Shown one piece after another: positions 4,251-32,418 of a stretch of DNA of 64,000 bases. Position numbers and translations under genes: made by a program. Source of the DNA: Candidatus Humimicrobiaceae bacterium (lineage in GTDB: Bacteria; Patescibacteriota; Minisyncoccia; Minisyncoccales; DG-74-1); contig DATKUR010000006.1 in assembly GCA_035530555.1 (NCBI GenBank), forward strand, positions 31,673 to 95,672, read 5' to 3'. Below the pieces are notes generated by a model, which ran no database searches, was not told the origin of the DNA, and worked only from the letters and a program-made list of their open reading frames with translations. Position 1 is the first letter of the stretch. Each line of letters begins with the position of its first letter.

Positions 4251-4367
4251 GGCGGGTGAACAAATGAGGCGCCCCAGCAGTAGAACGCTTCGCGTTCACT
4301 ACGGGGCAGTCCCGTACCGTGCTTTGCTCTGATACTGGGACGTTCTAGCCAACTGAACTACAGGCCC
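4251..4367 (-). other. tRNA-like 5' half followed by a long hairpin; no matching 3' acceptor strand (degenerate tRNA or unknown ncRNA)
   Basis: The reverse complement starts GGGCCTG TA GTTC AGTTGGCTA GAAC, a good acceptor 5' strand plus D-arm. It continues TCCCAGTATCAGAGCAAAGCACGGTACGGGACTG, then the hairpin CCCCGTAGTGAACGC-GAA-GCGTTCTACTGCTGGGG, then CGCCTCATTTGTTCACCCGCC. I find no T-arm and no CAGGCCC strand. Confidence 0.3.
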
Positions 4368-4370
4368 GTT

Positions 4371-4445
4371 TGGTGGGCGCGGAAGGAGTTGAACCTTCCA
4401 CCTCTTCTTTATCAGAGAAGCGTTCTACCGCTGAACTACGCGCCC
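4371..4445 (-). tRNA. tRNA-Ile (GAU), CCA encoded
   Basis: The reverse complement is GGGCGCGTAGTTCAGCGGTAGAACGCTTCTCTGATAAAGAAGAGGTGGAAGGTTCAACTCCTTCCGCGCCCACCA, with anticodon loop CTGATAA. Confidence 0.9.
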
Positions 4446-4996
4446 AAGACAAAAAATTCTTTTTTTACCGGGAGACTGCTTATCCTTTTTTTAAAAATAA
4501 CATTCAGTCCTATCTTATCGAAGATGTTCTCCCATTCTTCTTCTGACTTAAAAGAGGCTTTATTGTAATCTCCGATGAGCTTGGTGAAAGAAATTCCGTG
4601 AATCTTACAGAATAAACTTGAAAAAAAATCATCCAACAAGTCTTCGTAAATAATGATTTTACCCTTGGCCGTTCTTTTGGCTTCTTTCAAAAGAACAACG
4701 GGGTCTTCGCTATGATGTAAAACGTAATTAATTAAAACCGTATCAAAGGAATCATCTGGAAAAAGAAGGTGAAAACCATCATAAATTTGAAAAGGAAGCG
4801 AAGAAACCCGGTAATCTTTAATATCTACTCCCAAGACTTCTGCTCGAAAAAAATCTTGAAAGGTCTTCCCAACTATACCGCAACCGCAACCCAGATCGAG
4901 AACCTTCGAACCCTTTTTAATAAAATCTTGGCAATCCAAACACATTTTCTTTGCCGCCAATTTATAAATTGGGTAGAAAGCCCGGTAATGATTCAT
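4436..4996 (-). CDS. class I SAM-dependent methyltransferase
   Basis: 186-aa ORF with motif I VLDLGCGCGIVG. Its last codons overlap the 5' end of tRNA-Ile by about 10 nt. Confidence 0.7.
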   Translation of the reverse strand: MNHYRAFYPIYKLAAKKMCLDCQDFIKKGSKVLDLGCGCGIVGKTFQDFFRAEVLGVDIKDYRVSSLPFQIYDGFHLLFPDDSFDTVLINYVLHHSEDPVVLLKEAKRTAKGKIIIYEDLLDDFFSSLFCKIHGISFTKLIGDYNKASFKSEEEWENIFDKIGLNVIFKKRISSLPVKKEFFVLGA

Positions 4997-5469
4997 TTTC
5001 TAACTTTTGTAAAATTACCGATTATCAAGTCAGGTATCATTTTTCTAAGAGCAGCGCCTTTAAGTTTAATTGAAAAATTATAATCACCGCTATTGAGAAT
5101 GATTTTGGGCAGATTAATCAAGGATTTATCAACAAATGTCGGCACTCTCCATAAATTTCCAAAAGGCGGAATAGCGCCAATTTTTACCCCTTTTAGATTT
5201 TTCTTAATCCAGGCCTCCTTAATAAAACTAATCTTTTTCGTTTTAGCTGTTTTTCCTAACTTTAGAATGTCTAAATTTTTGTTTGCTGGAATCATAACCA
5301 AAGCTACCCTTTTGTCTATTCTCGTCACTAATGTTTTCCCAATCATCTTCTCTGAGACCTTTAAAGTGGCTGCTTTGTCAAAGGCAGTATAAACCGTCCG
5401 GTGCCCAACCACTTCGTATTTTGTCTTTACCTTTTCTAAAAAATTGGAAATTTTTTTGGGAATTTGCAT
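4993..5469 (-). CDS. YbaK/ProX-type aminoacyl-tRNA editing (deacylase) domain protein
   Basis: 158-aa ORF of the right size, with GAIPPFG and SGDYNFSIKL-type motifs typical of YbaK-like domains (recognised from memory). Confidence 0.55.
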   Translation of the reverse strand: MQIPKKISNFLEKVKTKYEVVGHRTVYTAFDKAATLKVSEKMIGKTLVTRIDKRVALVMIPANKNLDILKLGKTAKTKKISFIKEAWIKKNLKGVKIGAIPPFGNLWRVPTFVDKSLINLPKIILNSGDYNFSIKLKGAALRKMIPDLIIGNFTKVRK

Positions 5470-5621: not shown

Positions 5622-7184
5622 AAATTAATTGATCCACCGACAGCTTCCGCTACCGGTGCCTTGTTACGACTTCATTCTTGTTACCGACTTTAGCTTGAGC
5701 CCGCCTCAACGGCGGGATTTCGGCTACTGCCGGCTCCCCTAATGTGACGGGCGGTGAGTACAAGCTTCAGGAACGTATTCATCGCCACATAGCTGATTGG
5801 CGATTACTAGCGATTCCAACTTCATGAGGTCGGGTTGCAGACCTCAATCCGAACTGAGACCGGATTTGATGGGATTAGCTCCGCCTTGCGGCTTAGCAAC
5901 CCATTGTTCCGGCCATTGTACCACGTGTGCAGCCCAGGGCATCAAGGGCCACGCTGACTTGGCGTCATCCTCGCCTTCCTCCCGGTTATCCCGGGCAGTT
6001 CCCGGTGACAGATAAAACACAGGGTAAGGGTTGCGCAGGTTTTGGCATCTAAGCATGCACTTCAAAGCACCTGCTGACGACAGCCGTGCAGCACCTGCCC
6101 CAATGTCCTTGTGGGTAGTCCGCCGTTTCTGGCGGATTTCATTGGGGTTTCTAGCCCTGGTAAGGTTCTTCGTTTGTTGTCGAATTGAGCCACATGGTCC
6201 ACCGCTTGTGTGAAGCCCCGTCTATTCCTTTGAGTTTTAGTCTTGCGGCCGTACTTCCCAGGCGGAACACTTAACGCGTTAGCTTCGCCACCTAAAGGGT
6301 CGACACTTCAGATAGCCAGTGTTCATCGTTTAGGGCGTGGACTACCGAGGTATCTAATCTCGTTTGCTCCCCACGCTTTCGTCCTTCAGCGTCAGGACCG
6401 TCCCAGCTGAATGCCTTCGCTTTTGGTGTTCCGGTCGATATCAACGGATTTCACCCCTACACCGACCGTTCCATCAGCCCCTAACGTCCTCTAGCCAGAT
6501 AGTATTCCTGGCACCCCCAAGGTTGAGCCCTGGGTATTTAACCAGAAACTTTCCTGGCCGCCTACGGACCCTTTACGCCCAATAAATCCGGATAACGCTC
6601 GGAGACTCTGTATTACCGCTGCTGCTGGCACAGAGTTTGCACCTCCTTATTCCTCCGTTACTGTCACCCGAAGGTTCTTCACGGAGAAAAGCTCTTTACA
6701 CCCCGAAGGGCTTCTTCGAGCACGCGGCGTCGCTGGTTCAGACTTTCGTCCATTGACCAATATTCTCGACTGCGGCCTCCCGTAGGAGTGCGGACCGTAT
6801 CGCAGTTCCGCCGTTGGGGAACAAGCTCTCACTTCCCCTACCCGTCATCGCCTTGGTAGGCCATTACCCTACCAACTAGCTGATAAGTCGCAGACCAATC
6901 CTCAACCGGTAATCCTTGCGGACACCCTTTACCCACCACTTGCGTGGGGGGACTATCACGAATTAGCCAATCTTTCGACTGGTTATGCGTGTGTTGGGGG
7001 TTTGTATCTACGTGTTACTAACTCGTTTGCCACTCCCCCCATCACTTTGACCTGAATTTTCACGATTAACCTTATTTTTGGTTCCCTCGTTGAATTAAAG
7101 ACAAAGTGATGGGGAGCGTTCGACTTGCATGCCTGATCCACGCCGCCAGCGTTCATCCTGAGCTAGGATCAAACTCTCAAATAA
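5622..7184 (-). rRNA. rrs: 16S ribosomal RNA (about 1.56 kb), with expanded V1 helix and no CCUCC at the 3' end
   Basis: The 5' end reads TTGAGAGTTTGATCCTAGCTCAGGATGAACGCTGGCGGCG (reverse complement of 7141-7184). The 3' end reads AAGTCGTAACAAGGCACCGGTAGCGGAAGCTGTCGGTGGATCAATTAATTT, i.e. helix 45 with a GGAA loop, then GGATCA followed by ATTAATTT instead of CCTCCTTA. Confidence 0.93.
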
Positions 7185-28404: not shown

Positions 28405-28634
28405 CTACCAAAAAACCGCCCTTTTAGCGATTAATTTGATGAGTTTATCTTTCGAATAAAGTTCGATGTCCTAGACGGGTACCGGGATTTTTTCTCGAAC
28501 TATTTGTCAAAATATGAGGCGGATCGGTCTCTCGAACCGCGCTCAAGGTAGCTGCGGGGACTCTATTCGAACTATAGCTTCATTTTATGTTCGAAATCCT
28601 GTATTTTTCAGTTCGAATCTCGGAGGGGTCTCTA
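28405..28634 (-). repeat. island repeat copy 1 (segments A+B+C)
   Basis: Aligns with 29385-29627 (copy 2) and, for segments A and B, with 32251-32355 (copy 3, which abuts tRNA-Gln). Contains gctgcgggg, the last 8 nt of tRNA-Gln plus its trailer. Confidence 0.85.
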
Positions 28635-29375
28635 TATTTTAATTATTTCTTTCTGGACCGAACTAGTTATAATCAATCCATAATCTCTAGTTATGTAGCA
28701 ATTTATCTCGCTTCTAATTCCAAAGTTATTCTTTAAATAAAGACCAGGCTCGATGGTAAACAAAATATCTTTCTTTAATCCAGCATTACTTTTTTTGCCA
28801 AAACGAAAATATTTTCCATGGCATTCGTTGATTCCCAAACTATGTCCTAAACCATGAAGAAAGTTATTTTCTAAACCATACTTATCGAAATAATCCCTAA
28901 CCGTCTTATCAATTAATTTAGTTTTGGGAAGCTTTTTTGTCTTTAAATTCTGACGAAGTAATTTCAGAGCAGTTTCTCTTCCTTGAATAACTCTTTTAAA
29001 AATCTTTTTTATATCTTGTGGGATGTTTTTACCACAATAACCCATCCAGGTAATATCTGCGAAAGGAGCATCTTTTTCATTAATTCTTGCCCAAATATCA
29101 ATCAATACCAAATCGTTCTTTTTTATAATCTTAGAACTATTTTTCTGAGGAAAGTAATGGACTAAAGATGTATTTTTGTCTGCAGCTACAATTGGCAATG
29201 AATATCTTTTTTCGGCAACAAGGTTCTCTTTCTTAAATTCTGATAATATAAACTGACTGACCTTATATTCGGAGACCTTACCAAGATTATTTTTGATAAA
29301 ACCAAATGCTCTATTTTTAACCTGATCCAATCTTTCAGCTGCAATCTTATGTTGTTTAATTTGGTCTTTTGTCAT
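28632..29375 (-). CDS. M24-family metallopeptidase (Xaa-Pro/methionine aminopeptidase fold)
   Basis: 247-aa ORF with HGLGHSLG and EPGLY-type metal-ligand motifs. Confidence 0.7.
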   Translation of the reverse strand: MTKDQIKQHKIAAERLDQVKNRAFGFIKNNLGKVSEYKVSQFILSEFKKENLVAEKRYSLPIVAADKNTSLVHYFPQKNSSKIIKKNDLVLIDIWARINEKDAPFADITWMGYCGKNIPQDIKKIFKRVIQGRETALKLLRQNLKTKKLPKTKLIDKTVRDYFDKYGLENNFLHGLGHSLGINECHGKYFRFGKKSNAGLKKDILFTIEPGLYLKNNFGIRSEINCYITRDYGLIITSSVQKEIIKI

Positions 29376-29384
29376 AGTTTTACC

Positions 29385-29627
29385 CTACCAAAAAAGCGCC
29401 ATTTTGGCGATTAGTTGGTGAGGTTTTCTCCCGAATAAAGTTCGGCATCCTAGATGGGTATGGGTTTAGGACGTCCTGGACCCGTCAAGAAATTAGCTTC
29501 AAAATAGGCCTCTCGGTCGGCCTCGATACTGCGCTGACTGGTGCTGCCGCGCTGCGACTCGAACTATAGCTTCATTTTATGTTCGAAATCCTGTATTTTT
29601 CAGTTCGAATCCCAGGCGGGTGTTCTA
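29385..29627 (-). repeat. island repeat copy 2 (A, divergent B, C)
   Basis: The 52 nt cgaactatagcttcattttatgttcgaaatcctgtatttttcagttcgaatc are identical to copy 1. Segment A is similar by eye, and the middle segment is divergent and GC-rich. Confidence 0.85.
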
Positions 29628-29633
29628 ATTTTG

Positions 29634-30164
29634 TTATTTTAAAATATACTTTTCTAGCAACTCAAAGTCAATTTTATCAAAATGATTGTTTCCTTCAACT
29701 ATGACCAATTCTGCATTAAGATAATTTGCCAAGTCTTTGCCGTGTTGAAGGGGCACTGCCGGATCTTCCGTTTGGTTAAAAATTATGAATTTCTCCGAAG
29801 ATTCTTTTATTTTCTCCCAACTAAAATCTCCTTCCAGAAAATTTTCTATCATTTGAAATTCCGAACCCAGCCTCCTTATTGGTGTAGCCATTAATATACA
29901 TTTCCCTACTTTATTTTTTGCTTCCTCTAAGTATCCAAGAACAGTTGTTCCGCCTAAGCTGTGGCCAATAAGAATTGAGTTTGCATCTGGATTAAAATCT
30001 TCTATAACTCTCACCCATTCTTCTTTTTGGGGATGTAAAGAATTGGGCATGTCCGGCACGGTTACCTCGTACCCCATTTTTTCTAATCTTTCTTTTTCTT
30101 CTAAAAACCAGTGCTCTTTTGAATTACTTTCAACCCCGTGGATAATTAAAACTCTTTTTACCAT
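29634..30164 (-). CDS. small alpha/beta-fold serine hydrolase (YdeN/RBBP9-like)
   Basis: 176-aa ORF with the GHSLGG nucleophile elbow. Confidence 0.65.
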   Translation of the reverse strand: MVKRVLIIHGVESNSKEHWFLEEKERLEKMGYEVTVPDMPNSLHPQKEEWVRVIEDFNPDANSILIGHSLGGTTVLGYLEEAKNKVGKCILMATPIRRLGSEFQMIENFLEGDFSWEKIKESSEKFIIFNQTEDPAVPLQHGKDLANYLNAELVIVEGNNHFDKIDFELLEKYILK

Positions 30165-30171
30165 ATTTAAG

Positions 30172-30432
30172 TTAAATTTGATTCTTATGAATAAAATTTC
30201 CTAAAACCTGGTTAATTTCTTCAATTAAGTGCGGATGCCAACGATAATCGTGAGCTGAATTAATTCTGCAAAGCTCTTTAGGCTCTGCGGCTGCTTCATA
30301 AGCCTCCATTACTACTTCCGGTTTTACTGTCTTGTCATGAATACCTAATATAAATAATTTTGGTTTAGCACAATCTTTAAGGTCTTCAAGGATATTATAA
30401 CGATCGGAATCCTCAAAAAAAGCAGAAGACAA
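30172..30432 (-). pseudogene. 3' fragment of an alpha/beta hydrolase gene (5' part missing)
   Basis: The 86-aa ORF covers only the C-terminal region (KPKLFILGIHDKTV...SAHDY). The nucleophile region is absent. Confidence 0.5.
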
Positions 30433-30581
30433 GCTTAAGGCTGAATTTTTTAAGAGTCTTTATAAGGCTTTCCAAAGAAATAAAGATGCTTGATAACAAA
30501 AAGTACATTCTCTTACAAGAATCGGTTGACGAAATTGGAAGAATGCTCGGTGGCTGGTTGCGTTCTATTAAATCAAGATAA
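30381..30581 (+). pseudogene. avd: C-terminal half of a DGR accessory variability determinant (Avd, four-helix-bundle family); 5' half missing
   Basis: The open frame has no start before M at 30486 and reads ...SLRLNFLRVFIRLSKEIKMLDNKKYILLQESVDEIGRMLGGWLRSIKSR*. From memory, the tail resembles the C-terminus of Bordetella phage BPP-1 Avd (...AEVGRILGSWIARVNRK). Confidence 0.55.
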
Positions 30582-30584
30582 TCA

Positions 30585-30613
30585 CAAAGGGCATCCATTA
30601 GGGATGCCCTTTG
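30585..30613. other. perfect 12-bp GC-rich hairpin between the avd remnant and TR
   Basis: caaagggcatcc-attag-ggatgccctttg. It lies 16 nt downstream of TR in minus sense and 4 nt downstream of the avd stop in plus sense. Confidence 0.8.
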
Positions 30614-30628
30614 TAGCTTGCGGAGAGA

Positions 30629-30758
30629 CTTCGGGAGAAACCCAGACACCGAGCCATAGTTGTCGTTGGCATTGTCGAACCAGTTCGTGTCGAACTTGAC
30701 CTTGCCGTCGTTGAAGTTGAAGTAGGGCGCGTTCGAGAAATCGCCATCAGCATCAGGT
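30629..30758 (-). repeat. DGR template repeat (TR)
   Basis: Gap-free 130-bp alignment to 31168-31297. All 17 differences are at TR sense-strand adenines. The TR is noncoding: an in-frame TAA lies immediately 5' of the homology. Confidence 0.9.
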
Positions 30759-31065
30759 TAATTGCCCCCGCTCGTCCATATCACCAGACCGTGAAGTTTA
30801 CTGCCCTAAGGCTTATATCTTTTTGGTCTTGAATTTTATTCGGCAGCATCCCGCCAGGGGCGGAAACCTGCACTAAGCAGAGGCAAGCAGTATCTCCTCA
30901 GCACAACACGCTCTTAGAAACCGTAGTCGCTAAGACTCTGGTTGTTTTTCTCCTAAAGAGAGAGTTCGGCGACAGCAATCCGTGAACTGCTGTACATTAG
31001 CCTAAGCTCATTTATAGTATAACAAAAGAAAGTTTAATTTTAAATACATTATTAAAAAAGAAAAT

Positions 31066-31097
31066 AGGGGTTATCCACTGAGATGTGAATAACCCCT
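31066..31097. terminator. bidirectional intrinsic terminator downstream of the DGR target gene
   Basis: aggggttat-ccactgagatgtga-ataacccct, flanked by an A-run on one side and TTTTTT on the other. Confidence 0.65.
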
Positions 31098-31164
31098 TTT
31101 TTGTGGCGGACGCAAGGACTCAAAATATCAAGAAGTCCAAGTATCCAAGTCTTCAAGGTTCTAC

Positions 31165-32031
31165 TTACTGCGGGAGAAACCCAGACACCGAGCCATAGAC
31201 GTCGTGGGCACTGCCGAACCAGCTCGCGCCGAACTCGACCTCGCCGTCGTAGAAGTAGAAGCAGGGCGCGTCCGAGAAACCGCCAACAGCATCAGGTGCG
31301 TACTCGTCGCCAGCACAGTCGATCCAGAGATCGTCATAATGCTGGAGTCGCTCGGGATGGGTCAGTAATATGCACCCGATCTCGAATGCGCCGAGTCCAA
31401 ACTCATTGGCCGTAAAGACCTCGCGAGCTCGACGGACACTGCGGCCCCTGTGACGGAAACCGAACTGAGCAGCCACGACCAGAATGTCGTAGCCCTTCTG
31501 CTGTTCAGCCAGCGTTTCGAGCTTCTTTACTGTACGCTCGTGCTGTCGGAGATATTGCACTCCGAGCTTGCCTTCGCGCCAGTTGTAGAACTTGCCCTTG
31601 CGCTGCTTCTTAATCAGCTCCAGCACTTTCTCCACTGCTTCATTGTAGGTCTTGGCGACCGACTGCCACTTCGGGATGGCGAACCATCCTTCAGCATTCG
31701 GCGGAAGCGGTTGCTCGACGAGCTTTTCATCGGCGAAGCCGATGCCAGGAAGGAGCTGACGCAGAATGTTGGTCTGCTCTGTGATGCCTTTGGGCTTGTA
31801 GCCCGACAGGTATCCGTATCTGGACTCCACTTCCTCGTCCGCAAACTGGTTGCTCACAGAGAGCTCCCTGATGCCAGCAATGATGCGAGCTTGAAACTCG
31901 TCACCATTCTCGATGAGCTTCTGAAGCCCATCCTTGTCGAGACCGACTTCGGCTAATGCCTTGTCGGCGGCATCCTCGACAAACCTCTTGTACTGCTTTG
32001 TCTGTCCTGACGTGATCGATTTTGTCGTCAT
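31165..32031 (-). CDS. DGR variable (target) protein, 288 aa, family unknown
   Basis: Long ORF that is GC-rich relative to its surroundings. Its last 43 codons form the VR. A strong SD GGAGGTGA lies 6 nt upstream of the ATG. Confidence 0.85.
   Translation of the reverse strand: MTTKSITSGQTKQYKRFVEDAADKALAEVGLDKDGLQKLIENGDEFQARIIAGIRELSVSNQFADEEVESRYGYLSGYKPKGITEQTNILRQLLPGIGFADEKLVEQPLPPNAEGWFAIPKWQSVAKTYNEAVEKVLELIKKQRKGKFYNWREGKLGVQYLRQHERTVKKLETLAEQQKGYDILVVAAQFGFRHRGRSVRRAREVFTANEFGLGAFEIGCILLTHPERLQHYDDLWIDCAGDEYAPDAVGGFSDAPCFYFYDGEVEFGASWFGSAHDVYGSVSGFLPQ
31168..31297 (-). repeat. DGR variable repeat (VR) at the 3' end of the target gene
   Basis: See the TR entry. The VR encodes PDAVGGFSDAPCFYFYDGEVEFGASWFGSAHDVYGSVSGFLPQ*, whereas the TR would encode PDADGDFSNAPYFNFNDGKVKFDTNWFDNANDNYGSVSGFLPK. 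Confidence 0.9.
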
Positions 32032-32093
32032 CGTCTATCACCTCCATATAGTTTTTTTACCCGAATCGCTCGGGCTTGACGGCTTGTCTCCCA

Positions 32094-32148
32094 ATGAGAC
32101 GAGCATTTTAGAAACCAGCTAATCTGACATCTAAAACGCTCGTCTCAT
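32094..32148 (-). promoter_or_regulatory. 19-bp hairpin in the 5' UTR of the DGR target gene
   Basis: The arms are atgagacgagcattttaga (32094-32112) and tctaaaacgctcgtctcat (32130-32148), with one G-U position and a 17-nt loop. Confidence 0.7.
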
Positions 32149-32250: not shown

Positions 32251-32355
32251 ATAAAAGTTCGATGTCCTAGCGGGGTACCGGAATAGTTTTCTCGAACTTT
32301 TTCAAAAATATGAGGCGGATCGGTCTCTCGAACCGCGCTCAAGGTAGCTGCGGGG
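32251..32355 (-). repeat. island repeat copy 3 (A+B), the native trailer of tRNA-Gln
   Basis: ataaaagttcgatgtcctagcggggtaccgg...tatgaggcggatcggtctctcgaaccgcgctcaaggtagctgcgggg aligns with copy 1. Confidence 0.85.
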
Positions 32356-32418
32356 CCTGGACTCGAACCAGGATACCATCTTCCAGAGAGATGTGTCCTA
32401 CCATTAGACGACCCCGCA
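32348..32418 (-). tRNA. tRNA-Gln (CUG)
   Basis: The reverse complement is TGCGGGGTCGTCTAATGGTAGGACACATCTCTCTGGAAGATGGTATCCTGGTTCGAGTCCAGGCCCCGCAG. It has a U1:A72 pair and the anticodon loop CTCTGGA. Confidence 0.85.

Follow-up and report, generated by a model that had tools for sequence, protein, structure and literature searches.

To our knowledge, everything known about the mechanism of diversity-generating retroelements (DGRs) was learned on a single element, that of Bordetella phage BPP-1, which has its functional RNA downstream of the template repeat (TR). In BPP-1, RNA flanking the TR is required for cDNA synthesis (PMC6182149; bioRxiv 10.1101/2023.10.23.563531), and the structured RNA that envelops the reverse transcriptase (RT) sits downstream of the TR, where it supplies the primer (Sp A56), a stop duplex, the thumb ring and an RT-binding stem-loop (bioRxiv 10.1101/2023.10.23.563531). 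About 20 nt upstream of the TR are enough in vitro, and about 300 nt upstream of it matter for retrohoming in vivo (PMC6182149; bioRxiv 10.1101/2023.10.23.563531). A published survey of DGR RNAs examined 40 nt upstream and 100 nt downstream of the TR and proposed that the stop duplex is formed by sequence upstream of the TR with sequence downstream of it (bioRxiv 10.1101/2023.10.23.563531). In candidate-phyla bacteria, a gene order named B3, TR-(avd)-RT, is reported to account for 90% of the DGR set of Wu et al. 2018 (PMC5758913).

The locus described here lies in a stretch of 64,000 nucleotides, which was analysed as a whole and is called the window in the following. The DNA is of a bacterium with a small genome, of the Patescibacteria (candidate phyla) type. 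It contains an rRNA operon, the RNase P RNA and six tRNAs, and the gene order around the locus is prfB, ftsE, ftsX, tRNA-Gln, the DGR region, alpha/beta hydrolases, M24 peptidase and ftsZ. The GC content of positions 30600-32100 is 50-60%, with surroundings of about 37%. A Pfam search of the 288-aa target protein, to which a MAG protein at NCBI is identical, gave no domain; 2,413 homologs were found, which are variable only or mainly at the C-terminus. The variable repeat (VR) occupies the 3' end of the target gene and is present in a second copy, the TR. All 17 mismatches between these 131-nt repeats replace an adenine of the TR by any nucleotide in the VR, each at codon position 1 or 2, and such adenine-only differences are the signature of the variable and template repeats of a DGR. 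Identical copies of the target protein occur in 10 contigs from several samples, in a look-up that sees identical proteins only, which fits a frozen VR. In a neighbouring lineage, target proteins that are near-identical elsewhere differ within the VR. The coordinates of all features are collected in the table.

Two further observations concern the setting. The rRNA operon holds two ORFs of 186 and 158 aa at 4436-5469, between the 16S gene (5622-7184) and tRNA-Ile (4371-4445). In addition, an intergenic element of about 100-230 nt is present in three copies (28411-28640, 29390-29632 and 32254-32368), for which Rfam gave no match at E <= 1. At 32305-32368, the third copy extends into the 3' end of tRNA-Gln (32347-32418), and a 94% identical counterpart of this part is present at 28509-28572. 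The copies look like att-type duplications flanking small islands, one with the DGR remnant and hydrolases and the other with the M24 peptidase.

Table. Features of the DGR locus in window coordinates, and positions of LOOT RNA in related loci
Feature	Position	Strand	Remarks
DGR target gene	31165..32031	minus	288-aa ORF, without Pfam domain
VR (variable repeat)	31167..31297	minus	131 nt, covers the last 43 codons of the target ORF
Terminator-like hairpin of target gene, then T-run	31066..31097	minus	hairpin at the same place in relatives (alignment)
Promoter-like site of putative leader-TR RNA	31016..31044	minus	TTTAAA-17 nt or TTAAAA-16 nt, TG-n-TATACT
Structured leader RNA	30759..31009	minus	about 251 nt, between promoter-like site and TR
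Helix P1, hairpin	30968..31002	minus	12 pairs, 6 with compensatory change
Conserved single-stranded motif CGCCGAACUCU	30961..30971	minus	near-invariant in alignments; about 250 nt upstream of TR
P1.1, small optional hairpin	30949..30963	minus	local hairpin of at least 4 bp in 33/42 relatives, with differing sequences
Helix P2, long hairpin with internal loops	30904..30944	minus	13 pairs, 10 with compensatory change
Conserved unpaired stretch UGCUGAGGAGAUACUGCUUG	30884..30903	minus	near-invariant columns; last three bases UUG start the P3 5' arm
Helix P3, 5' arm	30875..30886	minus	12 pairs with 30762-30773, 9 with compensatory change; 99% of cells pair
Helix P4	30843..30871	minus	8 pairs, 8/8 with compensatory change
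Helix P5 (P5a + P5b)	30786..30829	minus	12 pairs, 10 with compensatory change
Helix P3, 3' arm	30762..30773	minus	ends 3 nt before TR (TR start 30758)
GAGAUACUGC stretch			part of the leader-TR-hairpin RNA
TR (template repeat)	30628..30758	minus	131 nt, second copy of the VR repeat
Post-TR hairpin	30583..30615	minus	terminator-like; 13 pairs, 11 with compensatory change; helix listed as 30614-30584
avd remnant	30423..30581	plus	residues 65-116 (30423-30578) and stop codon
LOOT RNA (RF03000) in related loci	L009:3618-3738 and 4295-4412; L012:7051-7170; L016:7041-7169; L019:5558-5687; L021:10843-10966; L024:1622-1751; L054:2346-2470; L120:3886-3999		

A preliminary description of this DNA had singled out about 300 nt between VR and TR (30759-31063) as a noncoding, partly GC-rich spacer with its own promoter-like element. 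Its noncoding nature is borne out, as all six frames are broken, the three minus-sense frames by 4-8 stops each with a longest open stretch of 38 codons, and no ORF of at least 40 aa lies inside the segment. The GC content is 0.42 for the segment and 0.49 for the conserved part of it, which we call the leader, compared to 0.40 for the window. The extent needs to be narrowed: the conserved RNA spans 31009-30759, and the remaining positions 31010-31063 are the promoter and the T-tail of the target-gene terminator, which fall outside of it. When the window is searched with a covariance model (R1), 30761-31009 is the only match, scoring 250 bits at E of about 1e-66.

The promoter-like element, previously placed at about 31012-31040, is found at 31044/31043-31016, with TATACT and an extended -10 TG. 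A -10-like hexamer, mostly TATAAT or TATACT, is present upstream of the leader in 77 of 80 relatives, its end lies 6-8 nt before the first conserved leader base in 61 sequences of this set, and 44 have the extended -10 TG. With the hexamer at this fixed distance, sequence conservation begins where transcription would begin. The hairpin that had been noted after the TR is likewise retained in relatives with covarying pairs, and its stem typically starts with an A-run and ends with a U-run in the sequence listing of the relatives. There it adjoins the stop codon of the convergent avd gene, which fits a bidirectional terminator. Alternatively, it may correspond to the stem-loop bound by Avd, for which Handa et al. 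gave a position just after the TR. The conserved promoter at fixed distance and the terminator-like 3' hairpin mark, at the sequence level, an independent transcription unit, and it is from these signals that we infer the transcription and the ends of a leader-TR RNA.

How widely the leader occurs was followed in two sets of loci. The target-anchored set comprises 79 loci with relatives of the target in species-representative genomes, all of them Patescibacteria-type MAGs, and about 35 of these have a local TR. Two layouts are found: either target, a spacer of 350-430 nt, TR and RT follow each other on the same strand, or the TR-RT block is inverted and located upstream of the target. The spacer aligns well across the relatives with visible compensatory changes, and none of them has a conserved ORF in it. 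An 11-nt motif of the spacer, CRCCGAAHTCT, is located about 250 nt upstream of the TR on the TR strand in both layouts; the RT starts at a near-constant distance from it, and the motif is missing from nearly all loci in which no TR was detected. The RT-anchored set consists of 80 metagenome loci with RT identities of 42-59%. The covariance model of the leader (257 positions, 57 pairs) matches in 44 of the 79 target-anchored loci. Of the RT-anchored loci, 62 have 800 nt or more in front of the RT, and the model matches in 56 of these. In this set, the matches are nearly all on the RT strand, with L104 as the one exception, and the leader ends at a median of 538 nt before the RT start.

The search for the segment beside TRs in related genomes, which had been proposed as a check, has thus located the leader in more than 100 related DGR loci of candidate-phyla bacteria, and it directly abuts the TR and shares its strand, whether the target gene points one way or the other. 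This conservation supports the earlier suggestion that it leads a TR-containing transcript, to the extent that transcription can be read from sequence. That a true TR follows the leader in the RT-anchored set could be shown for about 34 loci, in which a VR with adenine-only mismatches was found, and most of these VR-bearing targets are unrelated to the target of the window. As the leader tracks the TR and RT across unrelated targets, it is part of the TR/RT core rather than of the target gene. The RT clade concerned comprises over 7,600 members (E <= 1e-30), and DGRs of candidate phyla appear to be very numerous.

Several side observations were made in these loci. Copies or fragments of the leader also occur beside target genes that are followed by neither a TR nor an RT (L013:7027-7285, L041:6994-7223, and L052:2876-3028, 135-273 and 1505-1643), and decay of DGRs appears to be common and able to start from either end. 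The target family itself, without a Pfam domain, numbers over 2,400 proteins from across Patescibacteria, with identities of 50-90%. For many of them (e.g. L001-L008), neither TR nor leader nor RT lies within 6 kb, and these are either remote targets or undiversified paralogs. Finally, LOOT RNA (Rfam RF03000, function unknown) is present in eight related loci, mostly within a few hundred bases of the target or RT and often at the outer edge of the cassette; in L021 it lies about 2 kb beyond the RT. It was not found in the window.

The secondary structure was derived from an alignment of 28 non-redundant sequences that span leader, TR and hairpin, folded with RNAalifold. Base pairs were counted in the ten helices outside the TR, with partners slid by 1-3 columns and 500 shuffles as controls. 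In the 70 pairs of these helices, 95.5% of the cells can pair, compared to 40-47% in the slid controls; changes on both sides of the pair are found in 54 of the 70, compared to 19-25; and the covariation score is 0.561, compared to 0.11-0.16. None of the 500 shuffles reached any of the observed pairing or covariation measures. The same helices were recovered by an independent scan of a 68-sequence alignment, and the single-sequence fold of the window copy reproduces the helices P1-P5 with z = -2.4. Hence the covariance analysis over homologous loci, which had also been suggested beforehand, reveals compensatory changes in the leader beyond those of the controls, as is characteristic of a structured RNA, and the strong covariation across ten helices gives substance to the idea that the flanking structure is functional. 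The one local helix that had been pointed out in the window sequence, at 30843-30871, is the consensus helix P4, all pairs of which covary. P3 closes a three-way domain and was recovered again in the 68-sequence set. Between the helices, three unpaired stretches of the leader are almost invariant, namely CGCCGAACUCU, GAGGAGAUACUGC and AAUAAAAUUCA, as is GGUGA, and the GAUACU core of the UGCUGAGGAGAUACUGCUUG stretch is kept even in distant relatives.

Some further pairings were considered and not retained. Between the leader and the end of the TR or the 3' flank, where the counterparts of the BPP-1 primer or stop duplexes would be expected, complementarity amounted only to 4-bp runs at noise level, and no covarying helix was found that links the leader to the region 3' of the TR. 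RNAalifold also paired GAACU with AGUUC in the middle of the TR, which is uninformative because it is invariant. In a candidate pseudoknot of UACU (30892-30889) with GGUG (30785-30782), both strands are too conserved for a covariation test. As a separate observation, the leader motif CCGAACUCUCUC (30961-30971) resembles the 3' boundary of the TR, CCGAAGUCUCUCC (30621-30636), in the same orientation. They match at 11 of 12 positions in the window copy, and in some relatives only CCGAA is shared. The likeness may be due to chance or to a shared binding site.

The preliminary description had further remarked that the segment takes the position of avd in canonical DGRs. The segment is indeed noncoding here, but Avd is not simply absent: in relatives, the interval from TR to RT holds an ORF of 116 aa in antisense, with a match to bAvd (PF22296, E = 3e-18), and their RT matches RVT_1. 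The synonymous sites of avd are saturated over its whole length in the relatives, which speaks against a hidden RNA element in the antisense strand of avd. As these sites are unconstrained and no helix joins the leader to the 3' flank, the conserved RNA besides the TR consists of the leader and the hairpin only. The genes avd and RT diverge from start codons that are separated by 2-30 nt (L011 at about 2020-2030, and other relatives), so that either the promoters lie inside each other's coding region or the RT is expressed by read-through from the leader promoter through antisense avd. Both routes imply long complementary transcripts.

The state of the window copy is best seen by comparison with L167, a close relative with the same neighbours and a target that is 88% identical. 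The order there is prfB, ftsE, ftsX, target, leader, TR, (avd), RT, an unannotated ORF and a serine recombinase. Homology between the window and L167 is unbroken from 33335 to 30424 and ends inside avd. Only the residues 65-116 of Avd are left in the window, compared to the full 116 aa in relatives, and these are 90% identical to the Avd of L167 (tblastn) and match the positions 61-106 of the bAvd profile. Neither a motif scan nor tblastn with the L167 RT found an RT in the window; intact relatives have theirs about 540 nt after the leader. As read from this comparison, the RT gene and the first 64 codons of avd have been deleted at about 30424, and the element of the window is a truncated DGR. 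Beyond 30424 lies an 86-aa ORF (30172-30432) without a Pfam match, beside an intact alpha/beta hydrolase gene (29634-30164). Like the RT, the serine recombinase of L167 is absent from the window.

Among the best 120 matches to the nearest RT, no protein carries the locus-tag prefix of this MAG, and layouts without an RT like that of the window were found in at least four independent assemblies. Leader and TR of the window copy are intact, and no mismatch between TR and VR other than at adenines has accumulated, so either the deletion took place recently or the RNA continues to be used in trans. Unless another part of the genome provides an RT-Avd pair that acts on it in trans, the window copy is thus a relic that was disabled recently. 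With no RT and no full-length Avd of its own, its present activity is doubtful.

Regarding the role of the leader, we are fairly confident that it is the 5' structured domain of a DGR template RNA, in a class from candidate phyla (Patescibacteria) with avd inverted between TR and RT. By analogy, it probably is a scaffold for RT and Avd and a stop for the cDNA. In the mechanism we propose, a sigma-70-type promoter just after the target-gene terminator would start a noncoding RNA of about 430 nt, composed of the leader of about 250 nt, the 131-nt TR and the hairpin, in which the leader would fold into the helices P1, P1.1, P2, P3, P4 and P5 with three strongly conserved unpaired stretches. Modelled on the flanking avd and spacer RNA of BPP-1, the leader would most likely recruit and position the RT-Avd complex, and P3, which ends 3 nt before the TR, would most likely mark the point at which cDNA synthesis stops. 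As leader and hairpin are the conserved RNA besides the TR, we infer that the functions of protein recruitment and stop, and possibly also priming, reside in the leader. A more tentative idea, which we hold to be somewhat less probable than its opposite, goes beyond this: the RNA could be permuted relative to BPP-1, with RT-binding, stop and possibly priming elements in the 5' leader and a retron-like topology, and could be a stand-alone ncRNA gene, equipped with a promoter and terminator of its own, that RT-Avd acts on in trans. If this were true, copies without an RT like that of the window could still be diversified by RT-Avd encoded elsewhere.

As alternative to a domain of the template RNA, the leader could be a cis-regulatory RNA, riboswitch-like or protein-binding, that would regulate the TR RNA, and possibly the RT, through transcription or stability. 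The multi-helix junction, the highly conserved unpaired nucleotides and the position at the 5' end of a transcription unit would suit such an element. However, with P3 closing 3 nt before the TR, there is no expression platform between leader and TR, and the TR is noncoding, so that no ribosome-binding site exists that could be controlled. The spacing of leader and TR is fixed in every locus, which is a better fit to a structural role in a ribonucleoprotein, and no riboswitch of Rfam matches. We therefore think that a cis-regulatory function is unlikely. Clearly less probable still is that the leader constitutes a small RNA of its own or a signal of a mobile element, for example in integration or processing of an island, with the TR as its neighbour by chance. 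The DGR does lie in an island-like GC-rich stretch beside the duplicated 3' end of tRNA-Gln, and an intact relative has a serine recombinase nearby, but the leader stands within 3 nt of the TR and, in the RT-anchored set, keeps a constant distance from the RT in 56 of 62 loci. No intact cassette has the leader apart from the TR, and leaders without a TR occur only in decayed loci such as L013, L041 and L052. That the segment is a decayed avd gene, the 3' UTR of the target gene or neutral filler is hardly conceivable, since, although avd holds the equivalent position in BPP-1-type DGRs and the leader follows the target gene in the window, no relative has a conserved ORF or frame there, avd has its place elsewhere, in inverted orientation in the interval from TR to RT, many base pairs show compensatory changes, and in about a dozen of the related loci the leader precedes the target and is encoded on the opposite strand, and thus cannot be its 3' UTR.

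Taking the leader as the 5' domain of the template RNA, an RNA domain of 250 nt upstream of the TR, supported by covariation, is added beyond the 40-nt stretch that the published RNA survey covered. The leader offers testable parts for the recruitment of RT-Avd and for the start and stop of the cDNA in DGRs of candidate phyla, and it defines the minimal RNA for engineering compact DGRs. Its covariance model is a sensitive marker for TRs and for decayed DGRs in metagenomes.

The leader is a well-supported structured RNA family that is new and absent from Rfam. Rfam 15 gave nothing at gathering score in the window or in 31 related cassettes, and we found no published description of the leader in a literature of which our coverage is incomplete. 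The nearest candidate is RT-7 (RF03028; Weinberg et al. 2017, PMC5737381), a candidate structured RNA next to reverse transcriptase genes. A weak partial match to it occurs in one relative, L018, with 26.6 bits against a gathering score of 116.8. The match comprises a hairpin only, falls in helix P2 and is absent from larger searches, and the window leader has no RT-7 match at E up to 10. The first approximately 42 positions of RT-7 (gCCAGAGUc...GuCAaGG...gAGaGUG) resemble helix P2, and with 191 nt it is about as long as the P2-P3 portion of the leader. On the basis of these sequence likenesses, a homology of leader and RT-7 is possible.

In terms of gene order, the relatives agree exactly with the B3 architecture, in which avd is inverted between TR and RT (PMC5758913). 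The passages searched in that survey deal with genes and repeats, and a conserved RNA in front of the TR is not mentioned in them (PMC5758913). The window copy differs from B3 by the loss of the RT and of half of avd. The arrangement is also reminiscent of the msr-msd RNA of retrons, where a structured noncoding domain stands 5' of the template in one RNA beside the RT gene. This is a resemblance only, as the RT is of the DGR clade and the product would be a mutagenized cDNA that replaces the VR, and neither a1/a2 inverted repeats nor a branching guanosine context was found around leader and TR.

The comparison with BPP-1 is the most instructive. In both systems, noncoding RNA flanks the TR, which in BPP-1 is needed for self-primed, adenine-mutagenic cDNA synthesis by RT-Avd, and in both a stem-loop stands just after the TR. 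The template RNA of BPP-1 consists of the 3' segment of avd, the TR and the spacer Sp, and this spacer corresponds to the Rfam motif RT-10, for which no match was obtained in the window or in 31 related loci. In BPP-1, a duplex beside the 5' end of the TR stops cDNA synthesis. Here, the helix that abuts the TR, P3, is formed between two upstream strands; the 40 nt upstream of the TR pair with a strand further upstream, instead of with downstream sequence as the published survey proposed for the stop duplex, so the analogy with BPP-1 is not one-to-one. Downstream of the TR, the hairpin is followed by antisense avd without constraint on synonymous sites, unlike in BPP-1. Upstream of the TR, BPP-1 has avd coding sequence, whereas this part is noncoding here. 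Indeed, the large structured part of the RNA, which in BPP-1 comprises about 140 nt downstream of the TR, is found here as about 250 nt of noncoding RNA upstream of it.
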